Made by a program: the position numbers and the translations under genes. From an uncultured archaeon (lineage in GTDB: Archaea; Aenigmatarchaeota; Aenigmatarchaeia; QMZS01), in contig CAYLRQ010000002.1 in assembly GCA_964386335.1 (NCBI GenBank), forward strand, positions 1-34,837: DNA of 34,837 bases. The letters run 5' to 3'. Positions 98-23,796 of this stretch are shown piece after piece. The notes beneath the pieces were generated by a model. It ran no database searches, was not told the origin of the DNA, and saw only the letters and a program-made list of their open reading frames with translations. Numbering within the stretch: position 1 is the stretch's first letter; each line of letters begins with the position of its first letter.

Positions 98-2527
98 TTA
101 TTTTTGATTAATTTTAATTCCGACAATACTTGAAATTCCGTTTTCGGAAACCACACCATAAACCTGATCGCTTTTCGATATTGTAACATCATTATGGGTA
201 ATAATTATGTATTGCTGTTCCTTAGAGAATTCTCTAATCGCTTCTATAATTTTTTTTGTGTTTTCGCTGTCAAGGGCGGCATCGATCTCATCAAGCAAAA
301 CAAAACAACTCGGCCTGCATCTCTGTATTGCCAGAAGAAAACCTATTGCGGTTATTGTTTTTTCTCCTCCAGAAAGAGAATCTATACCAAGAAGTCTCTT
401 TCCCTTCGGTCTTGCTTTTATTAGCAGTCCAGAATAAATATTTCCCGGCTCTTCCAAAACAATATAACCTTCTCCACCGGTAAACTTCGAATAAATGTCT
501 CCAAATTCTTTATTTACAACTTCAAACAAATCCATAAATTTTTCTTTTCTTCGATTTTCAATTTCGGTTATTACCTTCAAGATGGCATATTTTTCTTCAA
601 TAATTTTTTCAACTTTCTCCTTCAAATCCTCGTACTCGCTTCTGTATTTTTCAAAATCTTCAACAGATTTCCAGTTTAAAGGACCCAACTTATTGATTTC
701 GTGTGCATAACTTCTTAACTTTTCTTTTAATTCTGGAACGCTTCCTTCTTCCACTTCATCAAACAGTTCTGTTTCGGAAAGTTCATCTTGATAATTCTTA
801 ACTTCCACTTCTATTCTGGCAAGTTTTATTTTTTCGTCAGATAATTCGCTCTGCAATCTCAATTTTCTTTCATAAATTTTTCTTCTTTTCTCTTGAATTT
901 TTCTTATTTCTTCTTCTATTTTTTCTGCTTCTTTTCCAATGCCCGCATATTTGCTGCTTGTTTCCTCTCTTTTTTTGGATATTTTTTTCAATTCTTCGTT
1001 CAATTTCTCCAGCTCTTTTTCCAGATTTTTGTTTTCTTCCGTTAAATATCCGATTTCCTTCCTGATTTTATTTGCATCAAAAAGCTGTTCTTTATATCCT
1101 CCCAAAACGGCACCGCTTTTTTCTATCAGAGAGCCTTCCAAAGTTGCAATTCTGTATTTATTCACAAATGGCTTGGAATTTTCTAGTTCATCTATAATTA
1201 TTGTATTGCCCAACGCGTATTCCACGACATTTCTGAATTTTTCATCAAAACTAACAAGATTTATTGCATTTCCAATTACTCCTTTTCCTTCCGGAGTTTG
1301 AATGACGTTTCCTTTAATTTTATCAAGAGGGAGAAATTTCGCCCTTCCTATTTTGTTTTCTTTCAAATATTTTATATAAATGGGTATTTTATCAAAAGAT
1401 TTTACAATTATATCATTTTTTGTATTTCCAAGGGCAACATCAATCGCCTGCTTATATTTTTGGTCGCAATCCAGAATTTGTTCAACAGTTCCAAGAATAT
1501 CTTCCTTTCCAAGTAAAAATTTAATTGCTCTTGGTTTATTTATTTCAGAAATCTGTTCAAGGTATTTTTCCAATCTTTCTTTTTCCCTGTTATTTAAATT
1601 TATTTTGTTTTCTAATTTCATAATTTCGCTTTTTACTTTTTCTTGCTCTTCTATTACCTTAACTTCCTCGCTCCCTCTGAAAATATTTTTTGTATATTCC
1701 CTTAATTTGTTTTCTAATTCCTCAATTGTTTTATCCATATCCTGAATTTCTTTGTCTATTCCCTTTATTTTTTCATCATATTCCCTTGCCTTTTCGCCGA
1801 TTCTTTCTTTCTTACTCAGATGTTCGTCCAAAGTTTTCTTTAAAATTGAGAATTTTATTTTTTTAATTTTTGAGTTTAGTTCATTATAGGTTTCAACTTT
1901 TCTTTTCTCAACAGAAATATTCTGAAATAATTTTTCTCTTTCCTTTAAAAGCAAACTTTGTTCTTTTAAAATTTCATCTACTTTTTTCAATTCCGTTTCG
2001 CTCTTTTTCTTTTTTTCATCAAACTCCGCCAGCCCGGCAAGTTCGTCTATGATGTGCCTTCTCTCCAAGGGATTCATTTCCAAGATTCTCGTAACATCTC
2101 CCTGCGCGACAATATTCAGCCAATCTGGAGAAATCCTCGCCTCTCTTAATAAATCAAGAATTCTCTGTCTGGTTTCTATTCTGTTGTTTAATCTATATGT
2201 TGATTGTCCAAGAGTATTTATTTTTCTCTCAATTACTATCGTGTTTTCATCAAATTTTATTTCTCTATCAGAATTATCAATTTCGAGTTCAACTTTTGCA
2301 CTATCGGACTGTCCCTTCTCGCTTTTGAAAATTAGGTCTTCCATCCTGTCTGCTCTCAAAGCCTTCGCGGAATTCTTTCCCAGAACAAAGGAGAACGCAT
2401 CCAATATATTTGATTTTCCTGAGCCGTTGCTCCCGGCAATACAGGTTATTCCATCTCCAATAACTAAACTTGTCTTGTTTTTAAAGGACTTAAAACCTTG
2501 AAGGGTCAATCTTGAAAGTTTCACCAT
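98..2527 (-). CDS. smc: SMC chromosome segregation ATPase (unusually short, 809 aa)
   Basis: N-terminal head FKSF...IAGSNGSGKSNILDA (Walker A). Heptad-rich K/E/L arms. Central hinge-like globular block (res ~336-488, GTVEQILDCDQKYKQAIDVALGN). C-terminal head with ABC signature LSGGEKT and Walker B CFVLLDEIDAALD. Confidence 0.9.
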   Translation of the reverse strand: MVKLSRLTLQGFKSFKNKTSLVIGDGITCIAGSNGSGKSNILDAFSFVLGKNSAKALRADRMEDLIFKSEKGQSDSAKVELEIDNSDREIKFDENTIVIERKINTLGQSTYRLNNRIETRQRILDLLREARISPDWLNIVAQGDVTRILEMNPLERRHIIDELAGLAEFDEKKKKSETELKKVDEILKEQSLLLKEREKLFQNISVEKRKVETYNELNSKIKKIKFSILKKTLDEHLSKKERIGEKAREYDEKIKGIDKEIQDMDKTIEELENKLREYTKNIFRGSEEVKVIEEQEKVKSEIMKLENKINLNNREKERLEKYLEQISEINKPRAIKFLLGKEDILGTVEQILDCDQKYKQAIDVALGNTKNDIIVKSFDKIPIYIKYLKENKIGRAKFLPLDKIKGNVIQTPEGKGVIGNAINLVSFDEKFRNVVEYALGNTIIIDELENSKPFVNKYRIATLEGSLIEKSGAVLGGYKEQLFDANKIRKEIGYLTEENKNLEKELEKLNEELKKISKKREETSSKYAGIGKEAEKIEEEIRKIQEKRRKIYERKLRLQSELSDEKIKLARIEVEVKNYQDELSETELFDEVEEGSVPELKEKLRSYAHEINKLGPLNWKSVEDFEKYRSEYEDLKEKVEKIIEEKYAILKVITEIENRRKEKFMDLFEVVNKEFGDIYSKFTGGEGYIVLEEPGNIYSGLLIKARPKGKRLLGIDSLSGGEKTITAIGFLLAIQRCRPSCFVLLDEIDAALDSENTKKIIEAIREFSKEQQYIIITHNDVTISKSDQVYGVVSENGISSIVGIKINQK

Positions 2528-5560: not shown

Positions 5561-5585
5561 TATTTATTATTTATTATTTTAATTT

Positions 5586-5840: not shown

Positions 5841-5870
5841 TTTTCATTTTTAGTTTTAGAAATAACTATT

Positions 5871-8933: not shown

Positions 8934-8941
8934 ATCGCAAA

Positions 8942-10369
8942 TTAATATCCCAATCTGCTGTGGAATTCCGTTATTTTCATCAGAACGCGCGGATTGCTTT
9001 CTTCCTGTTTTTCATATTCGGACAAAAGATGTATATACTGCTTTCTGGCCTCAGTATAATTTCTGGAATTTATTAACATCTGAATACGATTAATAAGTTC
9101 AAAAATTTTATCCTTTTTTTCTGATTCTTCCTGATTTATTATGACGGGTTTATAAATATATCTTGGCTTGGCATAGTTTATTTGTGAGGCTAATCTCTCT
9201 TCAGGAGAAATATTTTTCTTTGTTTTTTCCATATACGAGTTATTTTCAATTTTGCTGTCTATCTTCTTAGATAATCCGAGAAGTTTCATCTCCAGATCGG
9301 CAAATCTTTTGTTCAAATTTTCTTTTTCCAAATCCAATTGTTTTTTTATTTTTTCTTCATAGTCTTTTAGTTTATTATCTATGTACGTATAATCAACTCC
9401 CGCCAATTTTCCGCTTTGTTCTCTTTTTAGGGTTTCCATTCTCCTATCAAAAAACTGTTTAATTTTTTCTACTTCTTTATTTAATTCTGTCATATTTAGA
9501 CCTCCCGTCGTTTTATTGGTTCCTTTGATTACTTCAATCAGATCAGAAAACTTGCTCTCGGTATCGAATTTTAATTCGGCCAACTTTTCTTCTAATTCTT
9601 TATTTACTTTTTCTAATTCCCTTTTTTGTGCTGTTTCTGTTAATTTTAAAGACAATCTATCAACTGTTCTTAAAAGTTCTTTAAGTGTGTCCTCATTTGT
9701 TTCTATTTTATCTATATTGTTTCGTATTTTATTTAAATTTTCCTTCAGTTCATAAAATAAGGTTTCAACAGTTCCTGCATTCTTCTCCGTTTTATTTTTT
9801 AAATCTTCTACAATTTTAATTTTCTTATTTAATTCGTCTGCAATAGAAACAACATCTTTTAAACCTTTTATTTGTTCTATGGCGTTGGATAAATCCTTAA
9901 ATTTGCCGGATAGGATTTTAAGTCTATCTTCAATGGATTCTATTTTTGCGTTATTTTTTTCTATTTCGGCCTCCTTTTTCTCTAGATTTTTCAAAATTTT
10001 TTCTGGTTTTAATTCTTTAGCGATATCATATATTGTGTCAAACTTGCCTATAAGTTCGCTGTAATTTTTATCCAATTCTACCAACGAAGATCTCAATTCT
10101 CCAATTCTTTCGGAGAGATTAGTAATTCTCTCATTAACTTCTGATCTATTATTTTCTAAAATCTCGACACGGCCGAGCAATCTTTCAAGTTTCAGTGTTA
10201 AATCCACCAGGGATTCTTTTTCTGCATCTCTGCTTTCAAGCGAGGACAGGTCTTTTTTTTCATTTTTTTTTCTTCCAAATAACGTAAATTTCTTTTTTTC
10301 TTTTTCTTTCTCCCTTTTCTCAATATCTCGGAATTCTTCGGGAGTGATTATATTTTCTTCTTCTACCAT
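8942..10369 (-). CDS. Cytoplasmic long coiled-coil protein, function unknown
   Basis: 475 aa. No hydrophobic segment. Charged N-terminus (EKREKEKEKKK), then ~350 residues of heptad-like E/K/L/I/N sequence. Helical C-terminal block (IFELINRIQMLINSRNYTEARKQYIHLLSEYEK). The start codon lies 8 nt downstream of the giant gene's stop. Confidence 0.8.
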   Translation of the reverse strand: MVEEENIITPEEFRDIEKREKEKEKKKFTLFGRKKNEKKDLSSLESRDAEKESLVDLTLKLERLLGRVEILENNRSEVNERITNLSERIGELRSSLVELDKNYSELIGKFDTIYDIAKELKPEKILKNLEKKEAEIEKNNAKIESIEDRLKILSGKFKDLSNAIEQIKGLKDVVSIADELNKKIKIVEDLKNKTEKNAGTVETLFYELKENLNKIRNNIDKIETNEDTLKELLRTVDRLSLKLTETAQKRELEKVNKELEEKLAELKFDTESKFSDLIEVIKGTNKTTGGLNMTELNKEVEKIKQFFDRRMETLKREQSGKLAGVDYTYIDNKLKDYEEKIKKQLDLEKENLNKRFADLEMKLLGLSKKIDSKIENNSYMEKTKKNISPEERLASQINYAKPRYIYKPVIINQEESEKKDKIFELINRIQMLINSRNYTEARKQYIHLLSEYEKQEESNPRVLMKITEFHSRLGY

Positions 10370-10377
10370 AATATTCG

Positions 10378-13300
10378 CTAAATTTTTTCTAAGGAATTCT
10401 CCAAAGATGATATATATATTTCGGCCATCCTGAAGTTGCCCGTCTTAAGTTTATTTGTCGCGAGTTTGAAGTCCACCTCATAATCTTCGGTATAAACATT
10501 TCTTTCTTTTAGTTTTTTTATCTTCTCCTCAATAACTTTAAGCTTTGCTATATATTTTTTATACAACACGAGTTCGTCATCGCGGATTTTATGCGGATTA
10601 TGTTTTGTTGGCCTAAATTCAACAAAGAAGGGTTTTCCATCATTGTATTTGGGATATTGCATAAGTCCCGCACCAACACCCATTCTTGCAATTCTCTCCG
10701 AATATTGCTCTCCATATTTTGTTTTAACTTTATCTATGTCTGTCAACGATTTTGTATTTAACTGGAGTTCTGTCAAAACATTGCCTGCAATTGCTTCCTT
10801 AAAATCTGCCAGCACTTGTGAACACATAATAATGCCTATGCCCCATTTCCTGAATTCTCTTGCCGCTTTTTCCAGAGCAACATATCCTCCATGGCCTCCA
10901 TATTTCTCAAGTAAACGATGGACTTCATCAAAAACAATTACCAATTTTAATTCTGAACTTTCTTCCCAACTTTCTCTAAAAATAGAAGCAACAATATTGC
11001 GAACGGCTTCATCATATTCTCCGGATTTTAATTTGTTTAAGCAAAAAATGGTAATTTCTCCCGGGTTAATAAACTCCTTTATATTTAATTTAAAGTCCGG
11101 TTCTTCTACATCATAAATCAATCCGGGATAGGATTTTATATCAAAATCCCCCATATCAAATTTTTTGTATTTGCTTAAAAGATTATTATCCCTGCAGGGT
11201 TTAACAAAGCCCGTCCATTGCGCAGTTGGATCAAATACAATGACTGGTATTTTTTTGTCCAAAGCCTCTTCCGCAAATACAGAAGCAGAAACAGATTTTC
11301 CCGCTCCCGTTGCGCCAGCAACTATTATGTGAGTAGTCAAATCCTTTGGATCATAATAACAGTAATTATCTGTGCCGGCAAATTTTCCAATTTTAAAACC
11401 TTCTCTTGGAACTTTTCTATAATCAAGTGGATATAAGTATCTTTCCTCTTTTTCCTTTTCTTTCCTCCAAAGCAGATAATATCTCCATATATATGTGCCG
11501 CCAACTGCTACTGCCATCGCTAAAGCTAAAATTAATAATCCCACCGTTAGTGGAGATTCAAATAAGGGTTTAACCACTTCAAAAGTTGCCACATCCATAA
11601 TACTTTTTTCCTTATAATCTGCCCAGACTTCCAGAGTATAAGAGCCTTCTTCGGTGATATTTAAAGGCAAACTTTCTCTGACTATTGTTGTTGTTTCCAA
11701 AGTCGTATTTGTTTTCAGTTCTTCAATAATTTTATTTGTTTTCTGATATTTAATTATGTAAGTCAAATTCAGGGGATATTTTTTTCTTTCTCCCAGATTT
11801 ACCAATTTTACAATAAAATCCAAAGTTCCTTTTGGGTTTATTGTTTTACTTGCAATTTCAACTTTAACAGAGTAAATTGGTGCCGCCGATTCTAAAACCC
11901 TGATCGTAACGGGAATGCTTTGTTTTTGCCCTTCTGCTCTTATAATAATATTTCCCGCATAAGTTCCAATACTCTGATTGGTAAAAACTGTCAGGTAAAT
12001 ATCTAATTTTTTGGTTTCATTTGGTTGTAGAGTCAGTTTATTAGTACTTAAACTTAATAGGTCTCGCAAACCCTCTGTAATTTCCAGAGTGGTTGAAACA
12101 TTTTTATATAACTTATTTTTCATAGAAAGCCAATAAGTTTTAAGTTCTCCGCGGAAAACCCTGACGTCTCCAATATTCGTATCTATAACAAGAGGAAATT
12201 TTTCTATTGGACAGTCATTTGGACAGTTCTGCCAATTTTCTCCTATTTCGCAGACATTATTTCCGCAAATCGCTTTCTCCTCTTTTGAAGGAATGTAACT
12301 CTGTCCTCCACCTCCTCCTCCACCGCTAGTTCCTCCGCTCGTTTCTTTTTTTTCTTCTGGTTTAGAATAAGGAGTGCAGGGAACCAAACTGCTGCCAGAA
12401 TAACAGGCTTCTGCAACAAAGAACGCCGACAGGCTTGAAACGGTAAAATTGAACTTCTTGTTTTCTGGTGTGGCATTTAATATGTCTGAACTGGTTAAAT
12501 CCGAATTGCATTTTCTCTCAATATAGTTCCAATTATGACATTTAAAAATTCTAAGATGCTGCGGATTAATTGCCCAACCATATTTTTCAACTACGTAATT
12601 ATAAGCATCTGTGACATCCAAAATCAATCTCGCTTTACTAAGATTTATATTTGTGTCCACAACAAATCCGAGAATAGGAACATGAGTTTCGTCTGGTTTG
12701 TTCACCTCTGTTTTATTTGAAATCTCTATATAAGTTCCAAAATAATCAAATTTAAATGGATTTTTTATTTCATTTTCGGTTAAATCTAAGTTTGCATCAT
12801 AGAAAATTATTTTCTGACCGAATAAATCAACATCCACATCATATTTTCTCTTGTGCAAAGTCCAGTTATATGTTTTATTATCTCTGATGGAAAATTCATG
12901 CATTTTGTAGAGTTCTGCTAAATTTTTTTCTTCCCGGTAAAAAGTGAAGTTTGCATTGATTTTCTCTCCATCCGGGTTTGTTAAATTTCCCGTCATTTGT
13001 ATTGGCAGATAAATATCAAACCACCCCTTTTTGCTGCTTACGGGATTGCCTTCGGTATCATTTGCATAGACAATTATGTCGTAATCGCCTATCCGTTTTG
13101 GATTGGAAAAATTGAATACGAAATTTCTTTTATCAAAATCGTTTTCGGCGGGCAAAGTATTATTGGAGATGGGATATATCCTGTCTAATTTCCAATTGCT
13201 TCCAGTGTGATTGACGGTCGCCCATACAGAATCTATCTCTTTGTTATCCGTAACATTAACCTTAAAAATTATGTAAGGCAAAGTATAAGAAGTATTATCT

Positions 13301-16300
13301 ATAAAATATGTGTGAATATTCGAAAACCAAGGCGAAGTATAATCTTTATAAATAATTGCCTCTTCCTCTACATCGGAAAGAACAACTTCTTTTTTGGTAT
13401 AATTTCCAATAACTTCCAGATTATTTTTAATGGGGTTGTCTGTAATATTTGGAGCTGTACAAGTAATAAACCATCTTTGGCGTATTGTATGAAAATATAA
13501 ATCTGTAATAATGCATTCCTCTCCGCCAATTAAAATTGTCCAGTTTATGTCCTCCTGAACCGGAACATTTCCTTCCTTTGATTCTACTTCTATTGTTAAA
13601 TTTTGATTTGGTGAAACTTCTTCTGGATAAGGATCTTCCTTCTTTGGAGAAATAATATCAACGGTGAAATTAATTATTGTGAATGTGATAGGAATTTCAA
13701 CGGATTTTGGAGTAGCACTTTCATCCAAGTTTTCAATTTTTAAGGTATAATTGTAAGTTCCAATTATTAGAGAGTTATTATCAGTATCATAAAAAATTTC
13801 AACGGTTTTCTTTGTTTTGCTTGTTACACTTACTGAAGTTTGATTTGCTTGCTTTGTATCATTTAATGTTAAATAATTAATTGTTGTTTCATTTCCCGGG
13901 AGGATGGATAAATTAAATTCAAAATCTGCTTCTTTTTTGTTTGTGATTATAATTTCGCCGAGTTTATTTATTTCTTTTTTTAAACCCACTGTTTTGTTTA
14001 GGTAAATCGGAGAAACTTCCCAATCCTGGGAGGTTATATTAAGAATTAAAGGGAGATGGTCTGTGCAATTTCCGGTGCAATTTTGGATGGTTGCAGTGAT
14101 ATTCAGATGGTAAATGTTTATATAAGAATTGTTATCCGGTATTGTCAAAATCATGTTTATTGTAGAATTACTTGCTTTATTTAAACCGAAATTATTATTG
14201 CTGAAAGTTGTCCAATTATTTATCAAATCAGAATTATCTCCGGTTAAATTTAAAATAATATTGGTTAGATCTACATTTCCATAATTAAGTATGGTGAAAT
14301 TTGCCGTTCTGCTTGCCGTGATGGGAACGGTAAGAGTTAAATTATTTTCGGAGAATTTTATTCTCTTGTTTTCTTTAACATAAATTGAGATATTTTCCAT
14401 TGTATTATTTTTTGTACCGTCTGCATTCTGCCATTCAACGGTGAAATTTATCTGGTTATTTCCGATCTCCGCCCCGGCAGTTACAGTAATATTAATCTGT
14501 CTAGTGCAATTTTTTCCTGTTGGTATGGGTTCGCAATATATGGCCGGAATAAAAATTCCGATTGGTTTACTGACAGTTATTAAAGGATTGTACATTGTGC
14601 CATTTCCAGTATTATTCAGAAAGAAATTTAATAAGAGGGTTGCATTGTTCTCTATTGTTATGCCCTCCGCTGTTGAAGTGTTCAAACTCAGAATTAAATC
14701 TGCCGTCGTATTTCCAGAAGATACCTCAACCTTAATCTTCTTTTCATTAAGTTCCGTTGCATTATAAAAAAGATTCGGTTGATCTGCTATATTACAGGAA
14801 AAATTATAGTTGCCTTCGCCTCCAACTTTAGAATTTTTAACAGATACTCCCTTCTCATCTGTCAGATTAAATCCAATTAGCGTGGTGGTATTATAAAAAC
14901 TAACATTATACTTCGGTATTCCTTTTTCTGTATAATTATCTGCAACTTTGCACAATAAAGATAAATTTGCATTCTGCATGCATTTATAATTTAATAGACC
15001 TTCCGTTATATTAACAAAGGTGCAATAGTTGGAAACTATTGTAAGATTATTGATATAAGCAAAGCCCGTTAAATTAAAAAACAGGGTTTTTTTATCAGAA
15101 TCGTAAAACTGTTTTTCTGCCTCTGCAACTAATTTTCTTCTCCCAACATCTTCTGTTCCATTTAGTATATAATTCGTCGTATTTTCACCTATTTTTTTCT
15201 TTGAACTCAGATAAATTTGAACTGGCTCGCCAGAATGGAAATTTACACACTCTCCACTTTCATCCGCAAAGCAGAGATAATCAATTAGAGCAAAAACGGC
15301 ATCTCTCTCCCCCGCACCGGTATTTTTTTCGTTCCAGATAACAACGGATATGTTCCTCGCCGATGCGAAACTGAGATTGGTGCAAACATCGATGGTCCAG
15401 TTTTCCGGTTCTGGAACATCTCCGGAGGGATCCGTATTTTTTATAATTTCTTCTGTTAAATTGCAAATAACTTCTCCAACTTTTATATAGAATTCTCCAC
15501 TTGAACTGCTTTCATTAAATTCTCCCCAAGATTTGTATTTTATTTTTATTGAAGTTGGATAAGTAAAGTTAGGGAGTCTTTGGAATAACTTTGTTTCTCC
15601 ACCATTGGCAGATAGATTTGCAAAATAGTCGGAACCAATATGAGAAATATTGGTATGGCAGCCCACTGTGCTGCAAATAGAAGAATTCCAATATGAAAGG
15701 TCTCCAGAATCAAAACCTGCGTTTAAAATATTATAAGTTATATTATAAGAATTTAAATTTTCTTTCTTTAAATTAATTTCAAAAGTTTTGCTTTCATTTG
15801 CCGATAAATTAACCAAAAAAACCAATTCGGTTAGATTAGTCATATATTCTTGACTCTTATTTATTTCTAATTTGTCCGCTGTTTTCCACGAATATAAAGA
15901 AAATGGCAGTTCTGTTTCATTGAATAAAATTTTGGTTTTATTCAAATTCCAGTCTTTCAATTCAAAATCATCTGAACTAAAAAAACTTCCGTTCAAGATT
16001 ATCGGATAGTTGGTTCTATTTTTTCCGGATAAATCTTTAATTGTAAGATTTAATTTATATTTATTTACAAGATACCAATTGATCAATACTTCTGTAGTAT
16101 CATTACCACAATTATCCTTTGCAGAAGCATTCAGAGTAATATTTTGTCCCTTGTAATAGTTTCTCTCTTTTGGAGAAATTATTGTCAAATTTAATTTATC
16201 TCTTAAGATTATTTGTTCATCGGTTTGATTGTCTGAGATATTATAAAAATCATGGGTTCCGTTAATTTCAACAGACAGATTTTTTATTCCGACATTTAAA

Positions 16301-19300
16301 CTGCAATTTGGGGTATAAATTAAAGAACAGATTCCAGAAGAATTGGTTGTATTGGTTCCGATAAAGATTTCATTTAAATAAAAATGACAAGAATAACTAG
16401 AAAGATTTGCATAATTTTCATATCTATCAACTAATCTGGCGGAAAATGCCGCCTTTTCATTCTTATAGAAAGAAAAATTAACTGGATTTAAAATTGTTGG
16501 TTTTAACCATCCTTTTATGGTCAGATTATATTCTGTCGAATTTTTATCGTTGTAATAATCATCATTTTTTATTCCGATGTGCCAATTTGTTTTTCCTGGC
16601 TCAAAAGTTTGGCCCGGGTTAAAACTAAATTTGCAATAGCCGCTGGAATTGCTTTTTGTGGAATTTATCCACTTATTGACCCAAAGAGAACAATTCGCTC
16701 CAATAACTGTTTCTTCCGAATTCGTATCATTAATAAAAACAGATAAAGTTGCTGTTTCATTCCTGAAGACAACTGAATTGTTGCCTTCGCAACTATCCGC
16801 TAAATAAACAACAGAAACATTGTGTTTCAATACATTAAAATCTACAGAGGTGGTATTTCTCGGGTTATGAAATTTCGATGTGTTGTTTGAATTATAATCA
16901 AAATATTCAATTTTAAATTTGCTTATTCCAGTCCAGTTTTTGTCTGAGGTCAGATTAAATTCTACAATAGTTCCATTAGTGACGTTTTTTGAACCTTTAT
17001 TTACCCACGTCTTTGTTTTATTTTTAAAAATAAAAAGAACAACATTTATTGCATCATTGTCAATATCAGTTACATTGGCGGAAAATGTAAAATTTGCGCC
17101 CCAGATATCAGAAGATGGAGAGACCTTTAAATCGGTTAAGTTTGGTGGCAAATTGTAAGAACCTCCAACCAGATAATTTGTGGGATTGTTTGGACTCAAA
17201 GTTGGTTGCTTCCATTTGAAATACATATTGTTATTTATTTTTTTCTTGCAAACATAAAAAGTATCCGAACCAACCATTATTTGCGTGTAAGTTGGATTTG
17301 AAGTATTGCAATTATCTGTCAAATTTGGTGGGGTGATATCGTAAAAAGTTCCATTGCCATACCAATCAACCAATAAAAATTCTTCTCCCTCTATCTGCGA
17401 GTCATTAAGTTGCCACCATGCCGTCGCGTTTTTAAAAGTTCCGTTCGTAGCATTCAAAGTTAAATTTATTCTTCTCTTATAATTATCCATTCCATAAGTG
17501 GAGTAATAATCAGAGGTATTATATAAATGAATCGGCGTGCTCGTTTCCTGTGAACTGTCCCAAAAAAGAATGGAAAAGTTTGCATAGTTCCCGGCATTTA
17601 AGATGATTGGATTTGAAGAAATATTGCAAACTCTCTTTTCTATTCCAAATTCGGTTATATTTGTCACATTATAAGAAGTTAGATTAAAATCGCATTTTGT
17701 TGCACTATTATCAACAACAATATATTTAATTGAAATGTTCTCTGCTGGGATTCCCTTAAAAGTAATGTTATAAACCTTGCTTCCAACCGATTCGTTTATT
17801 TTAATATCGCTCGTTCTCGACCAAGCAGCAACATCCTTTTTGTAAGAAATAATGCCAGAAACATTGTAGACATATTCAACACTCAAATTAGATATATTTA
17901 ATTTTCCCTTGAAATCGGAATGAAAAATCAAAGGAATCTGACAATTATTTGCTGTATCGAGTGTAGTGCAGGTATTTATATAATTATTAATTGCGGAAAC
18001 TAAATTTTGACCTGTTGCAATTTCTGATGTTCTCAACTTTGTTTTTGAACTCTTCCAGTCTATTGTCGAATCATTGCCAACATCTATGCTTAAATTTGTC
18101 GGAAAATAATCAAAGTTGAAGACATAAATTTTTCCATCTATTGCTCCAGCAACTACTTCACTACCCTCATCTGTTGTCAGGTTACCTATTGCTATTGATT
18201 TTATGGTATCTCCAGCTACGAAATTACCTATCAAGTGTCCCGTACTATTTAAGATATATAATTCTTTATTATCACAACCTATAACTATCTCATTTCCTGC
18301 ATAATCATTTGCAATTTCTCCAATTCTAAGGCTGTTAACAGAACCTCCTGTACTATAGTTTTTAATTTCTCCTCCTGTAGAATTTAAAATATAGACTTTA
18401 TTGTCTCCAGTTCCAATTACAATTTCATTTCCCGGGTCAGAAGTAATATCTCCAAGGTCTATTGTATTTATTGATGAATCGCCAACAGTGATATTACTAA
18501 CAATTATTCCTGCAGAATTTAAAATATATATTTTTCCTCCCGCACAACCTGCAACAATCTCATTTCCTTCATCTTCAGTGAGATTTCCTATTACAATCTC
18601 ATTTATAGTCTCCTCAACAGAACTATTCCATTCCAAATTTCTAGACCGATTTATGACATAAATAATTGTACTGGAACAAGCAACAATCTCGCTATCTTCA
18701 CTGCCCACTATATTTCCTATTTTTACAGAGTTGATACTACCTCCTGTTGTATAATTCCATATCTCGTTACCAGTGGAGTTCAATAAATAAACCTTGCCAT
18801 CTCCAGAACCAACAACAATTTCTTCTCCAAGATCAGAAGTTACATTTCCTACATCTGTTGAATAAATCGGATTGGGAGAGATATAATATTCTTTTACTAA
18901 CGTTCCATTGCTTCCGTACAATATACTTACCTCTCCATCATAACCGGAAGTACCGGTTACAATTTCATTTTCATCTCCATGAAATATATTGCCTATTGAA
19001 ATTCCTAAAGGTGCTACATTGGAGGATTTCACAGGAGAATTATAAATCGTTGTAAGTTTCCCGGTCAAATTCATGCTGATATTCTGCACTGTCGCATTTT
19101 TTGGAATTGATAAATAAAATGTTTTATTTCCGCCATTTTCTGGAAAATCAAATTCTGCGGAAGAAATAAATGAAGCAGAATCATTAAATTTTGTCAGAAT
19201 GTATCTGAAAGAAAGGTTGCTCAAATCCAGAATATATTCTCCTTTTTGAACTCCCAAAAATCCTCCCGCAATATGAACATTTATAAATAGTGATGATAAA

Positions 19301-19350
19301 ATCAAGGTAAGACCTGCGGCAAAAATAGAAGTAAGCATCCTCTTTTCCAT
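10378..19350 (-). CDS. Giant (2,990 aa) type I membrane protein: propeller-tipped glycosylated ectodomain + single TM + cytoplasmic FtsK/HerA-superfamily ATPase
   Basis: Uninterrupted 8,973-nt ORF. Signal-peptide-like N-terminus MEKRMLTSIFAAGLTLILSSLFINVHIAG. Seven tandem blades. Very dense N-x-S/T sequons in the ectodomain. One hydrophobic helix about 370 aa from the C-terminus. Walker A and B motifs in the tail. Confidence 0.9.
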   Translation of the reverse strand: MEKRMLTSIFAAGLTLILSSLFINVHIAGGFLGVQKGEYILDLSNLSFRYILTKFNDSASFISSAEFDFPENGGNKTFYLSIPKNATVQNISMNLTGKLTTIYNSPVKSSNVAPLGISIGNIFHGDENEIVTGTSGYDGEVSILYGSNGTLVKEYYISPNPIYSTDVGNVTSDLGEEIVVGSGDGKVYLLNSTGNEIWNYTTGGSINSVKIGNIVGSEDSEIVACSSTIIYVINRSRNLEWNSSVEETINEIVIGNLTEDEGNEIVAGCAGGKIYILNSAGIIVSNITVGDSSINTIDLGDITSDPGNEIVIGTGDNKVYILNSTGGEIKNYSTGGSVNSLRIGEIANDYAGNEIVIGCDNKELYILNSTGHLIGNFVAGDTIKSIAIGNLTTDEGSEVVAGAIDGKIYVFNFDYFPTNLSIDVGNDSTIDWKSSKTKLRTSEIATGQNLVSAINNYINTCTTLDTANNCQIPLIFHSDFKGKLNISNLSVEYVYNVSGIISYKKDVAAWSRTSDIKINESVGSKVYNITFKGIPAENISIKYIVVDNSATKCDFNLTSYNVTNITEFGIEKRVCNISSNPIILNAGNYANFSILFWDSSQETSTPIHLYNTSDYYSTYGMDNYKRRINLTLNATNGTFKNATAWWQLNDSQIEGEEFLLVDWYGNGTFYDITPPNLTDNCNTSNPTYTQIMVGSDTFYVCKKKINNNMYFKWKQPTLSPNNPTNYLVGGSYNLPPNLTDLKVSPSSDIWGANFTFSANVTDIDNDAINVVLFIFKNKTKTWVNKGSKNVTNGTIVEFNLTSDKNWTGISKFKIEYFDYNSNNTSKFHNPRNTTSVDFNVLKHNVSVVYLADSCEGNNSVVFRNETATLSVFINDTNSEETVIGANCSLWVNKWINSTKSNSSGYCKFSFNPGQTFEPGKTNWHIGIKNDDYYNDKNSTEYNLTIKGWLKPTILNPVNFSFYKNEKAAFSARLVDRYENYANLSSYSCHFYLNEIFIGTNTTNSSGICSLIYTPNCSLNVGIKNLSVEINGTHDFYNISDNQTDEQIILRDKLNLTIISPKERNYYKGQNITLNASAKDNCGNDTTEVLINWYLVNKYKLNLTIKDLSGKNRTNYPIILNGSFFSSDDFELKDWNLNKTKILFNETELPFSLYSWKTADKLEINKSQEYMTNLTELVFLVNLSANESKTFEINLKKENLNSYNITYNILNAGFDSGDLSYWNSSICSTVGCHTNISHIGSDYFANLSANGGETKLFQRLPNFTYPTSIKIKYKSWGEFNESSSSGEFYIKVGEVICNLTEEIIKNTDPSGDVPEPENWTIDVCTNLSFASARNISVVIWNEKNTGAGERDAVFALIDYLCFADESGECVNFHSGEPVQIYLSSKKKIGENTTNYILNGTEDVGRRKLVAEAEKQFYDSDKKTLFFNLTGFAYINNLTIVSNYCTFVNITEGLLNYKCMQNANLSLLCKVADNYTEKGIPKYNVSFYNTTTLIGFNLTDEKGVSVKNSKVGGEGNYNFSCNIADQPNLFYNATELNEKKIKVEVSSGNTTADLILSLNTSTAEGITIENNATLLLNFFLNNTGNGTMYNPLITVSKPIGIFIPAIYCEPIPTGKNCTRQINITVTAGAEIGNNQINFTVEWQNADGTKNNTMENISIYVKENKRIKFSENNLTLTVPITASRTANFTILNYGNVDLTNIILNLTGDNSDLINNWTTFSNNNFGLNKASNSTINMILTIPDNNSYINIYHLNITATIQNCTGNCTDHLPLILNITSQDWEVSPIYLNKTVGLKKEINKLGEIIITNKKEADFEFNLSILPGNETTINYLTLNDTKQANQTSVSVTSKTKKTVEIFYDTDNNSLIIGTYNYTLKIENLDESATPKSVEIPITFTIINFTVDIISPKKEDPYPEEVSPNQNLTIEVESKEGNVPVQEDINWTILIGGEECIITDLYFHTIRQRWFITCTAPNITDNPIKNNLEVIGNYTKKEVVLSDVEEEAIIYKDYTSPWFSNIHTYFIDNTSYTLPYIIFKVNVTDNKEIDSVWATVNHTGSNWKLDRIYPISNNTLPAENDFDKRNFVFNFSNPKRIGDYDIIVYANDTEGNPVSSKKGWFDIYLPIQMTGNLTNPDGEKINANFTFYREEKNLAELYKMHEFSIRDNKTYNWTLHKRKYDVDVDLFGQKIIFYDANLDLTENEIKNPFKFDYFGTYIEISNKTEVNKPDETHVPILGFVVDTNINLSKARLILDVTDAYNYVVEKYGWAINPQHLRIFKCHNWNYIERKCNSDLTSSDILNATPENKKFNFTVSSLSAFFVAEACYSGSSLVPCTPYSKPEEKKETSGGTSGGGGGGGQSYIPSKEEKAICGNNVCEIGENWQNCPNDCPIEKFPLVIDTNIGDVRVFRGELKTYWLSMKNKLYKNVSTTLEITEGLRDLLSLSTNKLTLQPNETKKLDIYLTVFTNQSIGTYAGNIIIRAEGQKQSIPVTIRVLESAAPIYSVKVEIASKTINPKGTLDFIVKLVNLGERKKYPLNLTYIIKYQKTNKIIEELKTNTTLETTTIVRESLPLNITEEGSYTLEVWADYKEKSIMDVATFEVVKPLFESPLTVGLLILALAMAVAVGGTYIWRYYLLWRKEKEKEERYLYPLDYRKVPREGFKIGKFAGTDNYCYYDPKDLTTHIIVAGATGAGKSVSASVFAEEALDKKIPVIVFDPTAQWTGFVKPCRDNNLLSKYKKFDMGDFDIKSYPGLIYDVEEPDFKLNIKEFINPGEITIFCLNKLKSGEYDEAVRNIVASIFRESWEESSELKLVIVFDEVHRLLEKYGGHGGYVALEKAAREFRKWGIGIIMCSQVLADFKEAIAGNVLTELQLNTKSLTDIDKVKTKYGEQYSERIARMGVGAGLMQYPKYNDGKPFFVEFRPTKHNPHKIRDDELVLYKKYIAKLKVIEEKIKKLKERNVYTEDYEVDFKLATNKLKTGNFRMAEIYISSLENSLEKI
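10381..11484 (-). other. Cytoplasmic P-loop ATPase domain (DUF87/HerA - VirB4 - VirD4 - FtsK superfamily), last 368 aa of the giant protein
   Basis: Walker A HIIVAGATGAGKS (GATGAGKS at 11293-11316) followed by IPVIVFDPTAQW. Walker B LKLVIVFDEVHRL (~10924-10944). REFRKWGIGIIMCSQVLADF block. No N-x-S/T sequon anywhere in these 368 residues. Confidence 0.8.
11485..11553 (-). other. Single transmembrane helix of the giant protein
   Basis: PLTVGLLILALAMAVAVGGTYIW is followed by the basic stretch RYYLLWRKEKEKEER (positive-inside). It is the only long hydrophobic stretch after the signal peptide. Confidence 0.8.
12208..12339 (-). other. Gly-run linker plus 4-Cys module in the giant protein
   Basis: SGGTSGGGGGGGQ is encoded at 12301-12339, and CGNNVCEIGENWQNCPNDCP at 12208-12267. 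This separates the long distal ectodomain from two membrane-proximal Ig/CARDB-like modules. Confidence 0.7.
18106..18993 (-). repeat. Seven tandem ~44-aa blades (FG-GAP / PQQ-like beta-propeller), residues 120-415 of the giant protein
   Basis: Repeating unit G[ND](I/L/V)x..D.g.EIV.G...GK(V/I)Y(I/L)LNS.G. The seven blades start at GNIFHGDENEIV, GNVTSDLGEEIVV, GNIVGSEDSEIVA, GNLTEDEGNEIVA, GDITSDPGNEIVI, GEIANDYAGNEIVI and GNLTTDEGSEVVA. Confidence 0.8.
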
Positions 19351-19411: not shown

Positions 19412-19684
19412 TTATTGAGCTTTATTATTATCCGGTCTCTCTATATTTCTTCCAACATTAATTGCATTTCTTAATTCACTAACAGAATCTCTCAATTCTC
19501 TTATGCTTTTTGTAAGGATCAGTTCTTCATCATCAAATTTTTTTGTAATTTTCCTAATCTGTCTGAATTCAAATTCCAAGATGGCCAGATAAACAATAAT
19601 AACAAGAGAGAGCAAAAGCAGCAATTCTGTAATGGGTATGTTTATTCCAAATAAATATACATATCCTGTTATTCCTTCCATCAT
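19412..19684 (-). CDS. Small single-pass membrane protein with a coiled-coil-like tail
   Basis: 90 aa. TM helix ELLLLLSLVIIVYLAILEF followed by RQIRKITKK and a helical charged tail. Its ATG overlaps the stop of the upstream paralog B gene (ATGA at 19681-19684). Confidence 0.7.
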   Translation of the reverse strand: MMEGITGYVYLFGINIPITELLLLLSLVIIVYLAILEFEFRQIRKITKKFDDEELILTKSIRELRDSVSELRNAINVGRNIERPDNNKAQ

Positions 19685-22600
19685 TTATTTTGTTTTTTAA
19701 TAATATAAAATCTTTTTACACTCATATAAAGGAGAATTATGGCGAATAATATTGTTAAATAACCCACTAAATTTCCATAATTTGCGGTTGTACCAACAAT
19801 ATAGAAATTTCCTGTTCCCGTCGCCAGAATTGCTAAATCGGATCTCAATCTGCTTTCCGCTAAATACGTTCCGGTCGGGGCTCCAACTGGAACTCTAAAT
19901 CTTTCGGAGATACTCGTTTTATCTATCGGATCTAATTTCCCCAAATCTTGTATATTTGAATAAACCAGATTCCTTTCTGGAGTGTACACTTCAGTTTCCA
20001 GATAAGGATTATTTATTTCTTCTCCGCCATGAATAACTAAAATATCCAGAGTTACTGTCGAATTCAAACTATATCTTTCCTTGTCTGGAGTAATAATTAT
20101 TTTGGGATAACTTTGCTTATATCTTATATTTATTTCTTTTAAACCTTTCGCTGGAAATTTATTTATTAATATGGTTGTCAGATCTTTTCCACCTGTATAG
20201 GATAAACTATTTCCCAAACCATCTTTAACGGAAAGAATATTGTCTCTGGAAATTGGTAAGTTTATGGCAACATTTTCATAGTCTTCCATTGCAAGGCTCC
20301 TCAAGAATATTGACATTTTTAATTCAACCATCTTGTTTTCCAACTTCTTTATTACTTCAACGTCTCTATCCGTTTCCAAAACGGGCGGAGTTAAAATTCT
20401 GATATCATAGTTTCTCGTTTCCAGAGGTGCCAGTCTCGTTTTCCAAACCATCACGGTGGTTCCATTTTCTTTTTTGAAAACAACTTTTTCATCTATTTTC
20501 TCTCCTTTTTTATTCAAATAAGAAACAAATCCGTCGGTAGTATCTTCAAAAACATCTATTTTAAATTCGGATTCTACCCATCTTTGATTTGGATTATAAA
20601 CATCAAAATCTTTAACCCAAGCAACGGGATTTCCCACAGTTATTGTCCTCGCTGTCAGGAAATCTGTTTGTTTTATTATTGGCTCTACCAGTGGACTTGG
20701 AACTATAACTCTAACAACTCCATAAGCTGTAGAAAAGACCTTTTTACCAAGAGCAGGGTCAAAACCTGCCAGTTCCATCGGTATTTCATATAAACCCGAT
20801 TGGGTTATATTTATCTGATATAATATTTTAACTGCAGCACCACTGCTTAAAGTCCACCCGCTTTTATCGCCATTTGTATATTCACAGGCATGGACTTTAG
20901 TTCCATCGGATAAAGTAATGGTTCCTCTATCAGTTACATTATAATCCTCGCTAACACCGCAACTCCAGGTTGAACCGTCTGTTGAATTGCAAAAAGTTAC
21001 AGAAGATCTGGAACAAGCAAAGTCGGTTCCCAAAGGAACATAATCAACAAATTTAATTCCGGTAATTTCGTCTCCAAAAACCTGAGCAACCAAACTTCCA
21101 TTCACTAAAGTCGGATTTGCCGGATCCGGAACCCACAAATCTTTATAACCAACCAATTGTTTTCCTGAAGTGGACATTGACTTGGCGGGTAAATTTTCTG
21201 TTTCCGGTGTTCCGCTTTGAGTTGTTATAGTTGAATTTCCAGTAAAATTAAAAACATCTCCCAATTGTAAATTTGACGGCGAAGATACTTCATAAAATAA
21301 TTTTATTTTTTCTCCATTTTCTAAATATTTACCAATATTTGTTGAACTTAAATCAGGTATTGTAACATTAACCAATCCATTATTATCTCCGCTTGGGTCT
21401 GTAACTGTAACAGTTACTCCGTTTGTCGTCCCCGTTCCCGTTTTCAAAGTATAATCTGTACCATTATTAAATGAAACAATTATTGAGGTCTCATCTATAT
21501 CAAAGGGAGATCTCTGAGATCCGCTGGTTGTATTTCTGGGAACAACACTCAAAATAACAATTTTCTTTCCCGGAGCATTGTCATCTCCTTGATAAGTAAC
21601 TTCATCTGTTATGTTAAAAGTTGTTGCCGACTCAATAGCCAGATAACCGCCAGTAGTTTTTGTTGGAACCATATCAATTTTGTATAAAGTTGGTAAATCT
21701 AAAGTTGTATTAATATAAGAAACATAATTATCTGGATTCGTATCGTTCCAGATTATATGCCAGTCAAAAGAAGAAGCTACATAAGGCTTTGTTCCAGTTA
21801 TATGAACTCTGGTGGTATCATTAGAATAATCCGGGTCTGTTGTATATAATCTTCCATAATCTGCCGTAAAGTTTGATGGGCTAAAGGTTCCCTCCTGCAA
21901 TTTATTTGTTACAGCCCCCGTTGTTGCACTTACATTGTAAATTGCCCAATTTGAAATATTATAGGTCAAAACATTTCCATTAACTTCTGTAGAGTTCTTT
22001 GCCAGAATAGTTATAAATCCTCTGACATCCCAGGCTCCGCCTCCGCTCATTTCGGCCATATCAATTCCCTGCCTGACAGGACCTCTCGCATATTTATACG
22101 CTATTGTTAAACCAGTCAAAGTTGAGGTTTGGGAATAAGAACTTTTTACCCCCTTATCAGATGAAGCAGAATCCAAATTTATATTTGTATTGCCATTAGC
22201 AAAGTTGTCTGTTTCAATAATATTTGCGTAAATAGTAAAGGTTTGTGTTCCTCCCGCATTTATATCGCCGCTCCAGGTTATTCTGTCATAATAACCATCT
22301 GCGCCATCGCTTGAAGATCTAGAACCTGAAGAGGTATAGGTAATATTTACGGCATCTGCCCCACCATTAGTATCTGTATCAAACTGGATTACGATCTCTA
22401 CATTTGCTAAATTTTTGGATGTTGAAGGATTGTGTGCCGTTATTACAAAAGTCATATTATTTGTTGAGCCTCCGGAACCAATATTATCGTGATCGTATAA
22501 ATCATGACCTCCCTGTTCATTTGAATAAGAAGTAACATTAAATTCTATTGCTGGGGCTTTATTTGCATTTGTAATCTTATAATAATTCTGATCCTCTCCA

Positions 22601-23139: not shown

Positions 23140-23796
23140 ATGTGCGGAATATTTGGATATGTCGGAAATAATAACGCTGTTCCGATATTAAAAAAAGGTT
23201 TGAAAAAACTGAATTATAGAGGTTATGATTCCTGGGGTCTCGGTTTAAAAATAATGGATAAAATCAAAATTATAAAAGACGTTGGAGATTTTGAAAGACT
23301 GGAAGAAACACCCGAAATTGATTCAAATTTGGGCATATCTCACACTCGATGGGCTACAATGGGAGAAATATCAAAAAATAATGCTCATCCGCATACTAAT
23401 GAAGATAACGGGATTTGTGTCGTGCATAATGGAATCATAGAAAACTTTCGAGAATTGAAAGAAGAATTGCTGAATAAAGGTCATAACTTCAAATCAGAAA
23501 CAGATACGGAGATAATCTGCCATCTTATCGAAGAATATGATGAATACAAATTTCCCGAAGCGGTAAGAAAAGCCTTCTTAAAATTAAAGGGCAGAAATGC
23601 CATTGTTGCTTTGCATAAAGATTTTAATGGACTGGTTGGCGTGAAAAACGGTTCTCCTCTGGTGGTGGGAATAAAAAACAATTCCGGCAAAGAAGAATAT
23701 TTCATTGCCTCCGACCATAGAGCCTTTATAACGGAAACAAACAAGGTTATTTTTTTAAATGATAATGAGTTAGTGGTTTTGGAACAAAATGAATGA
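23140..23796 (+). CDS. glmS: GlmS fragment 1: class II (Ntn) glutamine amidotransferase domain
   Basis: MCGIFGYVG (catalytic Cys2), HTRWATMGE and VHNGIIENF motifs. Ends at TGA 23794-23796, inside what is normally the last part of the amidotransferase domain. Confidence 0.8.
   Translation: MCGIFGYVGNNNAVPILKKGLKKLNYRGYDSWGLGLKIMDKIKIIKDVGDFERLEETPEIDSNLGISHTRWATMGEISKNNAHPHTNEDNGICVVHNGIIENFRELKEELLNKGHNFKSETDTEIICHLIEEYDEYKFPEAVRKAFLKLKGRNAIVALHKDFNGLVGVKNGSPLVVGIKNNSGKEEYFIASDHRAFITETNKVIFLNDNELVVLEQNE

Follow-up and report, generated by a model that had tools for sequence, protein, structure and literature searches.

A HerA-clade ATPase tail on a giant surface protein, very probably of the SPEARE family, from an uncultured Aenigmatarchaeota archaeon

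We analysed a 34,837-nucleotide (nt) stretch of DNA, hereafter the window, that covers positions 1 to 34,837 of contig CAYLRQ010000002.1 from an uncultured archaeon of the Aenigmatarchaeota (GTDB lineage Aenigmatarchaeia, QMZS01; GenBank assembly GCA_964386335.1) and has a low G+C content of ~33%. A giant open reading frame (ORF) at 10378..19350 on the minus strand is complete, according to the ORF list and its translation, and encodes 2,990 amino acids (aa). Our focus was the span 10381-11553 on the minus strand, which encodes aa 2600-2990 of this ORF, i.e., a transmembrane (TM) helix, a HerA-clade ATPase, and a three-helix C-terminus, together referred to as the tail. Only two hydrophobic segments were found in the protein by hydropathy scan (aa 5-23 and aa 2603-2621), and of its N-x-S/T sequons 156 lie N-terminal of the TM helix and none C-terminal of it. 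The two segments and the split of the sequons therefore place ~2,550 aa outside the cell and the ATPase in the cytoplasm. The features of the tail are given below with conservation from an alignment of 55 homologues from several archaeal phyla. Tail residues are counted from aa 2600, with K86, D108, E210, and R235 corresponding to aa 2685, 2707, 2809, and 2834 of the full protein, and HerA residues refer to the Sulfolobus solfataricus protein (PDB 4D2I).

11485..11553, minus strand: single TM helix PLTVGLLILALAMAVAVGGTYIW (aa 2600-2622), from hydropathy and a continuous helix at tail residues 2-36 in the AlphaFold model
11419..11442, minus strand: juxtamembrane motif RYLYPLDY, within a family-wide R-Y-x-F-P-x-D-Y-x-K-L-P block; R38, Y39, P42, and P49 at least 90% conserved
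11293..11316, minus strand: Walker A GATGAGKS (aa 2679-2686), with K2685 equivalent to HerA K154 in the HMMER alignment to 4D2I; G-x-T-G-x-G-K invariant
11215..11244, minus strand: VIVFDPTAQW strand and loop, with D2707 equivalent to HerA D176, on which the alignment ends; F107, D108, P109, T110, Q112, and W113 invariant
10918..10944, minus strand: Walker B LVIVFDEVH, with E2809 equivalent to HerA E356, followed by LLEK, with K2816 equivalent to the HerA DNA-loop residue K363; D209, E210, H212, and R213 invariant
10816..10863, minus strand: Arg block AREFRKWGIGIIMCSQ, aligned to HerA ARE-GRKFG, with R2834 equivalent to the HerA trans arginine finger R381; R232, E233, F234, R235, K236, W237, G238, S245, and Q246 invariant
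10381..10581, minus strand: C-terminal three-helix element (aa 2924-2990), a candidate docking surface; L364, L369, K370, F374, and Y380 invariant

The ATPase core was the most conserved part of the whole giant protein. Approximately 65 tail positions were invariant across the 55 homologues, including those of the motifs G-x-T-G-x-G-K, F-D-P-T-x-Q-W, D-E-x-H-R, and R-E-F-R-K-W-G. HMMER alignments to 4D2I paired K86, D108, E210, and R235, all conserved in 55/55 homologues, with K154, D176, E356, and R381 of Sulfolobus HerA. Mutating any one of these four abolishes or cripples HerA ATPase activity; D176 is required for it, and R381 is the arginine finger acting in trans, whose replacement in R381K abolishes activity (PMC4351679). 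Judged from its sequence, the tail belongs to the HerA clade of the FtsK-HerA superfamily and is competent for catalysis. This agrees with a preliminary description of the window, which had considered the tail catalytically competent, and every sequence test that we applied pointed the same way. Its position for Walker A was exact, and its polar, Arg-containing block downstream of Walker B was found intact as AREFRKWGIGIIMCSQ, with the nine residues listed above invariant and the arginine finger among them. Walker B was likewise present, though spanning 10918-10944 rather than ~10924-10944. A loss of catalytic residues among homologues, which that description had named as the sign of a pseudo-ATPase, was not seen at any of the four positions in the 55 sequences.

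Profile and structure searches placed the tail closest to HerA. Pfam DUF87, the HerA central domain, matched above its gathering cut-off (41.3 bits, E 2.5e-10), and HerA_C (PF05872) scored 42 bits against a cut-off of 22 (E 6.3e-11) while covering only model positions 21-98 of 502. FtsK_SpoIIIE (PF01580, 19.9 vs 24 bits), T4SS-DNA_transf, and AAA_10 remained below their cut-offs, and ResIII (23.2 vs 22.5 bits) and TrwB_AAD_bind (21.5 vs 20.5 bits) barely reached theirs; these five matches covered little outside the P-loop/Walker scaffold. The AlphaFold2 model of the tail had a predicted local distance difference test score (pLDDT) of 92.6 and a predicted template modelling score (pTM) of 0.89. 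Foldseek against the PDB returned Sulfolobus HerA 4D2I as the top match (E 1.3e-12, TM-score 0.54), followed by Thermococcus HerA-NurA and the HerA rings of anti-phage systems, while the coupling protein TcpA and FtsK reached a TM-score of 0.39 and no VirB4 structure appeared among the 50 best matches. A family profile searched against PDB sequences gave the same order, with HerA 4D2I first (E 2.2e-9) and other HerAs next. The YjgR structure 11kk matched the tail at E 1.7e-6 in two short stretches. The C-terminal ~67 residues, which the preliminary description had considered coiled-coil-like, were instead predicted as three packed helices (tail residues 325-350, 356-370, and 374-389; pLDDT ~95) and not as a single long coiled coil.

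The tail resembles HerA in its DE-x-H motif and in a mostly retained basic residue at the DNA-loop position, and 4D2I was the best match by both fold and profile, its four catalytic residues aligning to invariant residues of the tail. It differs in being membrane-tethered, in sharing only ~15% identity, and in having no HAS barrel, the place of which is taken by the TM helix and ectodomain. Only ~50 residues, forming a helix and two short strands, separate the TM helix from the P-loop strand, and HerA alignments begin at HerA residue ~117. Scores against the NCBIfam HerA equivalogs fell below their cut-offs (31.4 vs 800 bits for NF040937; 19.4 vs 970 for NF040819), and no window ORF, nor any gene in six related loci with precomputed Pfam annotation, matched NurA, the nuclease that adjoins HerA, often together with Mre11 and Rad50. 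The matches to the Ced system were confined to short stretches (CedD, 38.8 vs 600 bits; CedB, 22.2 vs 700), with no polytopic neighbour. PF03135 (CagE_TrbE_VirB), the VirB4 N-terminal domain, had no match at E≤1 in the window module or in P0067 and P0078, the two standalone nanohaloarchaeal paralogues for which it had been claimed, and the NCBIfam TraC and VirB4 models scored 22-25 bits against cut-offs of ~570-590. Thus membership of the VirB4/type IV secretion system (T4SS) family fails the tests that we ran, as does membership of HerA proper, FtsK, and Ced, though the tail may still function like a secretion motor.

Several membrane-associated or packaging ATPases share parts of this organization. 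FtsK/SpoIIIE and Streptomyces TraB belong to the same superfamily and likewise have an N-terminal membrane anchor followed by a ring ATPase. TraB operates without other type IV secretion components, a precedent for a membrane translocase poor in partners. FtsK has a 4-TM domain of its own and a gamma/winged-helix domain, while the tail has one TM helix, no such domain, and a huge ectodomain. The type VII ATPases EssC/EccC are membrane-anchored FtsK-like export motors with few TM helices per protomer, and EssC ranked 50th in the Foldseek search. EssC differs through its tandem ATPase domains, its FHA domain, and polytopic partners such as EccD and EsaA, all of which are absent from the window system. 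Packaging ATPases of membrane-containing viruses (PRD1 P9 class; PH1, Corticoviridae) are also superfamily members and ranked among the top matches when the viral structure library was searched. The conduit that serves the ATPase in PRD1 is built from small proteins that each span the membrane once, so DNA transit through bundled single helices has a precedent. These viral ATPases are much smaller, soluble, lack a fused ectodomain, and occur in viral contexts, while the window context is one of housekeeping genes. A viral or mobile origin was considered and rejected, with the viral fold library returning superfamily relatives only (top match, a HerA_C-like phage protein) and the window carrying housekeeping genes.

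The giant protein as a whole matches the SPEARE proteins described in nanohaloarchaea. In BNXNv_0298 and SVXNc_0300, these consist of a Sec signal, an Ig-like domain, two beta-propellers, ~75 Ig-like repeats, and a TM helix, with a cytosolic "VirB4/TraG-like" ATPase and a coiled coil at the C-terminal end and a second ATPase gene next (Reva 2023, PMC10266531). An earlier study had labelled the tail a restriction-enzyme domain and noted similar sequences in Woesearchaeota, Aenigmarchaeota, Micrarchaeota, and Altiarchaeales (Hamm 2019, PMC6642349). By BLASTP, aa 1960-2987 of the window protein matched the tail of BNXNv_0298 over ~1,040 aa at 33% identity (E 1.5e-166) and that of a 15,808-aa Woesearchaeote protein at 45% identity (E 1e-176). 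The remaining features, in the ectodomain, are as follows.

19261..19350, minus strand: N-terminal hydrophobic segment, signal peptide or anchor (aa ~5-30), with a hydropathy peak at aa 5-23
18280..18999, minus strand: beta-propeller repeats close to the distal ectodomain tip (aa 118-357); Pfam Beta-prop_CGLA and Beta-prop_BBS7 above cut-offs, Beta-prop_ACSF4 partial
12211..12339, minus strand: Gly run (aa 2338-2350) and Cys motif CGNNVCEIGENWQNCPNDC (aa 2362-2380), at the boundary between the lineage-specific stalk and a family-wide ~640-aa module
11554..12300, minus strand: membrane-proximal extracellular module (aa 2351-2599), common to fused and standalone relatives, with BLAST matches in 78/83 loci

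The beta-propeller repeats and the ATPase were the only Pfam domains in the giant protein, and the membrane-proximal module gave only weak CARDB, Fn3, and Ig-like hints. The window protein is thus like SPEARE in lying mostly outside the cytoplasm, with one TM helix close to the C-terminus and a cytoplasmic region after it, and in having beta-propellers at aa 118-357 and a helical C-terminal tip, here of three helices; Ig-like repeats were seen only as faint Pfam hints. No serine protease, laminin-G, or restriction-endonuclease domain matched in Pfam at E≤0.01, other than the threshold-level match of the ResIII helicase scaffold. The absence of these domains, from which the acronym derives, does not exclude membership of the family because Reva et al. 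dispute them in the founding members too (PMC10266531). Given the homology of the tail to named SPEARE proteins, we therefore regard the window protein as a compact, Aenigmatarchaeota-type SPEARE relative, and we have high confidence in family membership with a predicted active HerA-clade ATPase. The Gly run and CGNNVCEIGENWQNCPNDC form a module boundary, since in the standalone paralogues P0024, P0050, and P0116 the Cys motif is the first element after the signal peptide, and they are possibly a hinge or processing site; the ectodomain part of SPEARE and its TM/cytoplasmic part were recovered in separate gel size fractions (Hamm 2019, PMC6642349).

Compared with the nanohaloarchaeal SPEARE proteins (NAR1_1133 of Ca. 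Nanohaloarchaeum antarcticus, SVXNc_0300 of Ca. Nanohalococcus occultus, and BNXNv_0298 of Ca. Nanohalovita), the window protein has an identical order of parts: signal peptide, propeller near the tip, long stalk, one TM helix, cytoplasmic ATPase, and helical C-terminus. Both also have a downstream coiled-coil gene of the same family. The window protein is three times shorter (2,990 aa vs 8,880-9,409 aa), has no laminin-G, protease, or toxin domains by Pfam, and falls in a collinear ~2,950-aa group typical of Aenigmatarchaeota. Unlike the nanohaloarchaeal loci, the window has no second, standalone ATPase paralogue between the giant and coiled-coil genes, and a pair of ~1,000-aa surface paralogues and a TM protein of 90 aa flank its giant gene instead. 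In Ca. Nanohalovita, a 628-aa homologue lies directly after the 8,880-aa BNXNv_0298, as one does after the 15,808-aa protein of the Woesearchaeote. Such tandem giant and standalone ATPase genes were observed at loci L001, L002/L024, L025, L027, L046, and L082, and in most pairs the ATPase domains within a locus were closer to each other (0.66-0.87) than to those of any other locus in the set. This likeness suggests recurrent duplication or concerted evolution, as expected if both ATPases co-assemble in one ring.

Relatives of the tail were widespread. Hundreds with ~45-60% identity occurred in Aenigmatarchaeota, Woesearchaeota, Nanohaloarchaeota, and other DPANN, with the closest tails 75-83% identical, and the family comprised at least 583 loci among GTDB species genomes. 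At E≤1e-30 the tail matched 347 clusters formed at 50% identity, and fused giants were common among the best 150 cluster representatives, ~66 of which had at least 2,000 aa (the longest 7,878 aa) and carried the ATPase at their very C-terminal end. The collinear orthologue group (2,883-3,106 aa) was represented in at least 20 genomes, with 29-51% identity along the whole ectodomain. Other arrangements were also observed: the ATPase was N-terminal or mid-protein, with more sequence after it, in P0213, P0230, P0232, P0244, and P0270, and the orthologue at L074 was divided into two ORFs of 1,126 and 1,046 aa (4530-7910 and 8021-11161) by gene fission or a frameshift. Outside DPANN, a 1.9-Mb contig of Ca. 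Hydrothermarchaeum profundi (L045) carried a giant gene of at least 3,721 aa, a 271-aa gene, and a coiled-coil gene. The other occurrences outside DPANN (L011, L065, L072, L077, and L032) were on short contigs binned as Methanosarcinales or Heimdallarchaeota that may be mis-binned.

The search for canonical partners of such motors combined Pfam on all remaining plausible ORFs of the window, a hydropathy scan, and the six Pfam-annotated related loci. None of NurA, VirB/VirD4, CedA, or a relaxase was present in the window or in the six loci, which bears out, across all 34.8 kb, the earlier remark that no usual partner of HerA, VirB4, VirD4, CedB, or FtsK-type motors lies nearby and extends it to relatives, next to whose genes such partners might have been found. 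Nor did the window encode any polytopic membrane protein; its membrane proteins had at most a signal peptide and one TM helix, in agreement with the single helices noted previously. The implication that the motor is partnerless or odd was not supported: it belongs to a large published family, SPEARE-type, with its own conserved, non-canonical partners. The genes adjoining the giant gene are the following.

19681..22953, minus strand: 1,090-aa Pfam-less type-I surface protein, first gene of the cassette, with a signal-like N-terminus and a C-terminal TM helix
19412..19684, minus strand: 90-aa bitopic membrane protein (one TM helix and a helical tail), overlapping the upstream gene by 4 nt
8942..10369, minus strand: 475-aa cytoplasmic coiled-coil protein, the conserved partner gene, starting 8 nt after the giant ORF stop codon
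5871..8933, plus strand: 1,020-aa paralogue of the 1,090-aa surface protein (30% identity, E 4e-41), convergent with the cassette

Homology (E 1e-21 to 1e-30) linked the 475-aa coiled-coil protein to the gene that comes after the last ATPase gene at three other loci, those of Nanohalovita, a Woesearchaeote, and one more. A hidden Markov model built from 73 homologues was used for a census of the 75 loci with enough downstream DNA. The coiled-coil gene was directly downstream on the same strand in 58 of these and followed after one intervening, Pfam-less gene of ~250-330 aa in 7 more, and in some relatives the ATPase and coiled-coil genes overlap by 3 nt. The protein is unannotated, with a conserved core at residues ~57-250, and no TM segment was predicted in any of the 73 homologues. 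Its AlphaFold model consisted entirely of long helices plus a small, confident C-terminal helical domain, at low overall confidence (pLDDT 62.8, pTM 0.19). The partner had no Pfam match and a profile search of PDB sequences returned nothing below E 0.03; an ESCRT-III/PspA-like or other known fold was rejected on these grounds. We also considered and set aside the type-IV-pilus-associated coiled-coil proteins (Hamm et al. 2023), which are described at other loci with CpaF and TadC; the window contains none of these genes. The strongly conserved, tightly packed gene pair fits the earlier proposal that the C-terminus may work with the product of the next gene, and the coiled-coil protein is probably a functional partner of the tail.

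At eight loci (L041, L043, L045, L049, L071, L073, L076, and L078) a Pfam-less gene of ~230-340 aa came directly after the ATPase gene. The coiled-coil gene was next in seven of them, and at L071 none turned up within the ~1.9 kb of sequence that extends downstream. NurA or another nuclease was considered as the intervening gene; all eight copies were blank in Pfam, and it is therefore not NurA.

Close orthologues shared a cassette composed of a ~1,000-aa surface protein, a ~90-aa bitopic protein, the giant ATPase, the coiled-coil protein, and a convergent surface paralogue. Homologues of the 1,090-aa protein lay immediately upstream, on the same strand, of giant orthologues at L005, L008, L010, L011, L014, L016, L017, L019, L021, and L033. 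The 90-aa protein had homologues in 10 related loci, in at least 8 of which they were located between the 1,090-aa-like surface gene and the giant gene, and homologues of the 1,020-aa protein were likewise convergent at L004-L008. The 90-aa protein had no BLAST match to the nanohaloarchaeal Zn-ribbon-plus-TM protein of 108-115 aa, and homology between the two was rejected; the gene of the latter was observed downstream in nanohaloarchaeal loci (L001 13475-13822, L003 13927-14253). The two Pfam-less surface paralogues, each with a signal peptide and a C-terminal TM helix, bracket the giant gene, and the same surface-protein family adjoins most of the ~2,950-3,100-aa orthologues as well as some nanohaloarchaeal loci.

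The other window ORFs were housekeeping or Pfam-less in the Pfam scan. The housekeeping set comprised SMC, a PP-loop ATPase, ScpA, SepF, cytidylate kinase, a PRC barrel, a split GlmS, GlmM, a GlmU-like enzyme, a GT2 glycosyltransferase, a helix-turn-helix regulator, a YchF-like GTPase, acetyl-CoA synthetase, and an S-layer fragment. GlmS seemed to be split into a 218-aa glutamine-amidotransferase (23140..23796, plus strand) and a 373-aa SIS protein (23821..24942, plus strand). GlmM, the GlmU-like enzyme, and GT2 followed, making up a UDP-GlcNAc/glycosylation cluster beside the sequon-laden surface proteins. The SMC homologue (98..2527, minus strand), with ScpA and SepF genes adjacent, had only 809 aa with head and hinge present, which implies unusually short coiled-coil arms. 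A 126-aa ORF (34443..34823, minus strand) matching the S_layer_C domain ended within 14 nt of the window end.

Our best overall explanation is that the tail serves a SPEARE-type giant envelope protein as its cytoplasmic motor module and acts as a ring translocase with a coiled-coil adaptor, to which we assign a probability of roughly 0.5. The sequon-rich ectodomain of ~2,550 aa with its beta-propeller near the tip is exported, and one TM helix per protomer anchors the HerA-clade RecA-fold ATPase right beneath the membrane. The ATPase would form a hexameric ring, as in all characterised FtsK-HerA ATPases, and, with the RecA core following ~50 residues past the TM helix, this hexamer would lie flat beneath the membrane with its N-terminal face towards it. 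At the base of a host-contact appendage, ATP hydrolysis may then draw a linear substrate (a nucleic acid or an unfolded protein) through this ring, while the coiled-coil protein may dock on the C-terminal helices as an adaptor or stator. In HerA systems, NurA docks on the N-terminal (HAS) face of the ring. HerA moves its substrate towards NurA (PMC5715905), and if this polarity is kept the substrate would move from the cytoplasm to the membrane, i.e., for export or injection. Our confidence in both the direction and the substrate of translocation is low. The equivalent of K363, a residue that acts in DNA binding by HerA (PMC5715905), was K or R in 90/94 domains, and K268, K279, R213, and R/K275 of the tail were invariant or almost so; these basic residues hint at compatibility with a nucleic-acid substrate.

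A number of observations weigh against this model. The HerA residue equivalences are based on alignments at ~15% identity, the K363 equivalent is acidic in nanohaloarchaeal members, and a second HerA DNA-contact lysine, K420, has no conserved equivalent. The preliminary description had called six helices, one per protomer, a thin basis for a pore, and conservation lends some support to that doubt: the TM helix was the least conserved segment of the tail (mean majority-residue frequency of 0.36 vs 0.71 for the ATPase core) and had no conserved polar or pore-like residues. Six such helices alone would be a poor conduit for double-stranded DNA, and no polytopic membrane partner was conserved, by hydropathy in the window or in the six annotated loci. 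In a rival account, which develops the alternative of the preliminary description (assembly, rotation, or retraction of the external stalk, or remodelling of the coiled-coil partner), the ring moves nothing across the membrane and serves to oligomerise six giant stalks, with ATP changing the stalk conformation or assembling, disassembling, or pulling the coiled-coil partner or neighbouring single-pass proteins. By analogy, HerA can be an allosteric platform for Sir2 or DUF4297 effectors and VirB4 can extract pilins, and the closest structural relatives of the tail include just such effector platforms (the rings of Sir2-HerA and DUF4297-HerA complexes). The TM helix would then be a generic anchor, in keeping with the lack of a channel-forming partner in the window and with a coiled-coil partner that, by its gene order, is obligatory. 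Across the ~2,950-aa class, moreover, the ectodomain keeps its collinearity and is conserved in the manner of a structural apparatus, not of a fast-changing adhesin. In contrast, mechanistically characterised superfamily members all thread a polymer through the pore, the HerA DNA-loop position is mostly basic, and no FtsK-HerA ATPase is known to drive a stalk outside the cell by way of a single TM helix. Weighing the basic residues and the superfamily habit against the poorly conserved TM helix and missing polytopic partner, we therefore rank translocation first and the hub or remodeller second. The odds that the tail is a ring translocase rather than purely a remodeller or hub come somewhat short of even in our estimation; remodelling is less likely, at odds clearly below even, but stays a serious rival because the TM helix is so poorly conserved.

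Earlier or more conventional readings fared worse. Reva et al. (2023) proposed that the tail is VirB4/TraG-like and the giant protein part of a T4SS that injects effectors into the host through a 'straw' (PMC10266531), a reading compatible with weak P-loop-level Pfam matches to TrwB_AAD_bind and T4SS-DNA_transf and with the cytoplasmic bridges up to 11 nm wide seen by cryo-electron tomography (cryo-ET) in a nanohaloarchaeon-host pair (PMC11001535). It is improbable given the lack of PF03135 in either the window protein or the two standalone paralogues, the dominance of HerA rings over VirB4 in Foldseek, the very low TraC/VirB4 scores, and the absence of VirB3, VirB6, VirB8, VirD4, and relaxase genes from the window and the six annotated loci. 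A DNA-repair or anti-phage HerA (of the HerA-NurA, Sir2-HerA, or DUF4297-HerA type) fused by chance to a surface protein would account for the fold and for the best sequence matches, which are to HerA proteins of these systems. We consider it very improbable, with a TM helix instead of the HAS barrel, no NurA, Sir2, or DUF4297 neighbour in the window, equivalog scores of 19-31 bits vs 800-970, and a membrane tether and ectodomain fusion in hundreds of genomes that are incompatible with a soluble role. An anti-phage defence context was likewise rejected, as the PADLOC matches of the tail were limited to weak ones (HerA and mad8) and those of the partner to generic coiled-coil noise. The reading of Hamm et al. 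(2019), a type III restriction-enzyme-like domain that degrades imported DNA, is less plausible still. The original annotation is explained by ResIII matching at threshold, but that match is limited to the P-loop/Walker B scaffold shared with helicases, no nuclease domain was detected, and the fold is HerA-like; Reva et al. found no endonuclease domain either (PMC10266531). Equally implausible is an inactive pseudo-ATPase serving as a structural anchor, for which we found nothing and against which stand the four catalytically validated positions and ~60 further residues invariant across phyla in the most conserved part of the protein.

Published work already covers the architecture, where it occurs (Aenigmarchaeota included), and the idea of a translocase. 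On the HerA/DUF87 assignment or the partner gene in DPANN, our literature search found nothing beyond Hamm 2019, Reva 2023, and Reva 2024. In the papers searched, three things appear to be undescribed: that the tail falls in the HerA clade instead of VirB4, with all four of the validated catalytic residues invariant; that a coiled-coil partner gene accompanies it almost universally; and that the ~2,950-aa class has a fixed five-gene cassette. SPEARE-type giants are leading candidates for host attachment and material exchange in genome-reduced DPANN archaea, and the tail is their only enzymatic part, for which the published labels of restriction enzyme and VirB4/TraG conflict. The window instance alone adds little; the HerA-clade assignment, the missing canonical partners, and the coiled-coil gene and cassette sharpen further testing, and the compact, ~3,000-aa Aenigmatarchaeota form is more tractable for expression and structure determination than the 9,000-aa nanohaloarchaeal proteins. 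It is conceivable, though doubtful, that the HerA-clade ring, coiled-coil partner, bitopic proteins, and giant stalk constitute a self-contained, envelope-spanning machine mechanistically distinct from T4SS, Ced, type VII, and FtsK systems. If so, it would occur widely in DPANN and in some other archaea, and could, for example, be the motor and conduit for DNA or protein between a DPANN cell and its host via the bridges observed by cryo-ET.

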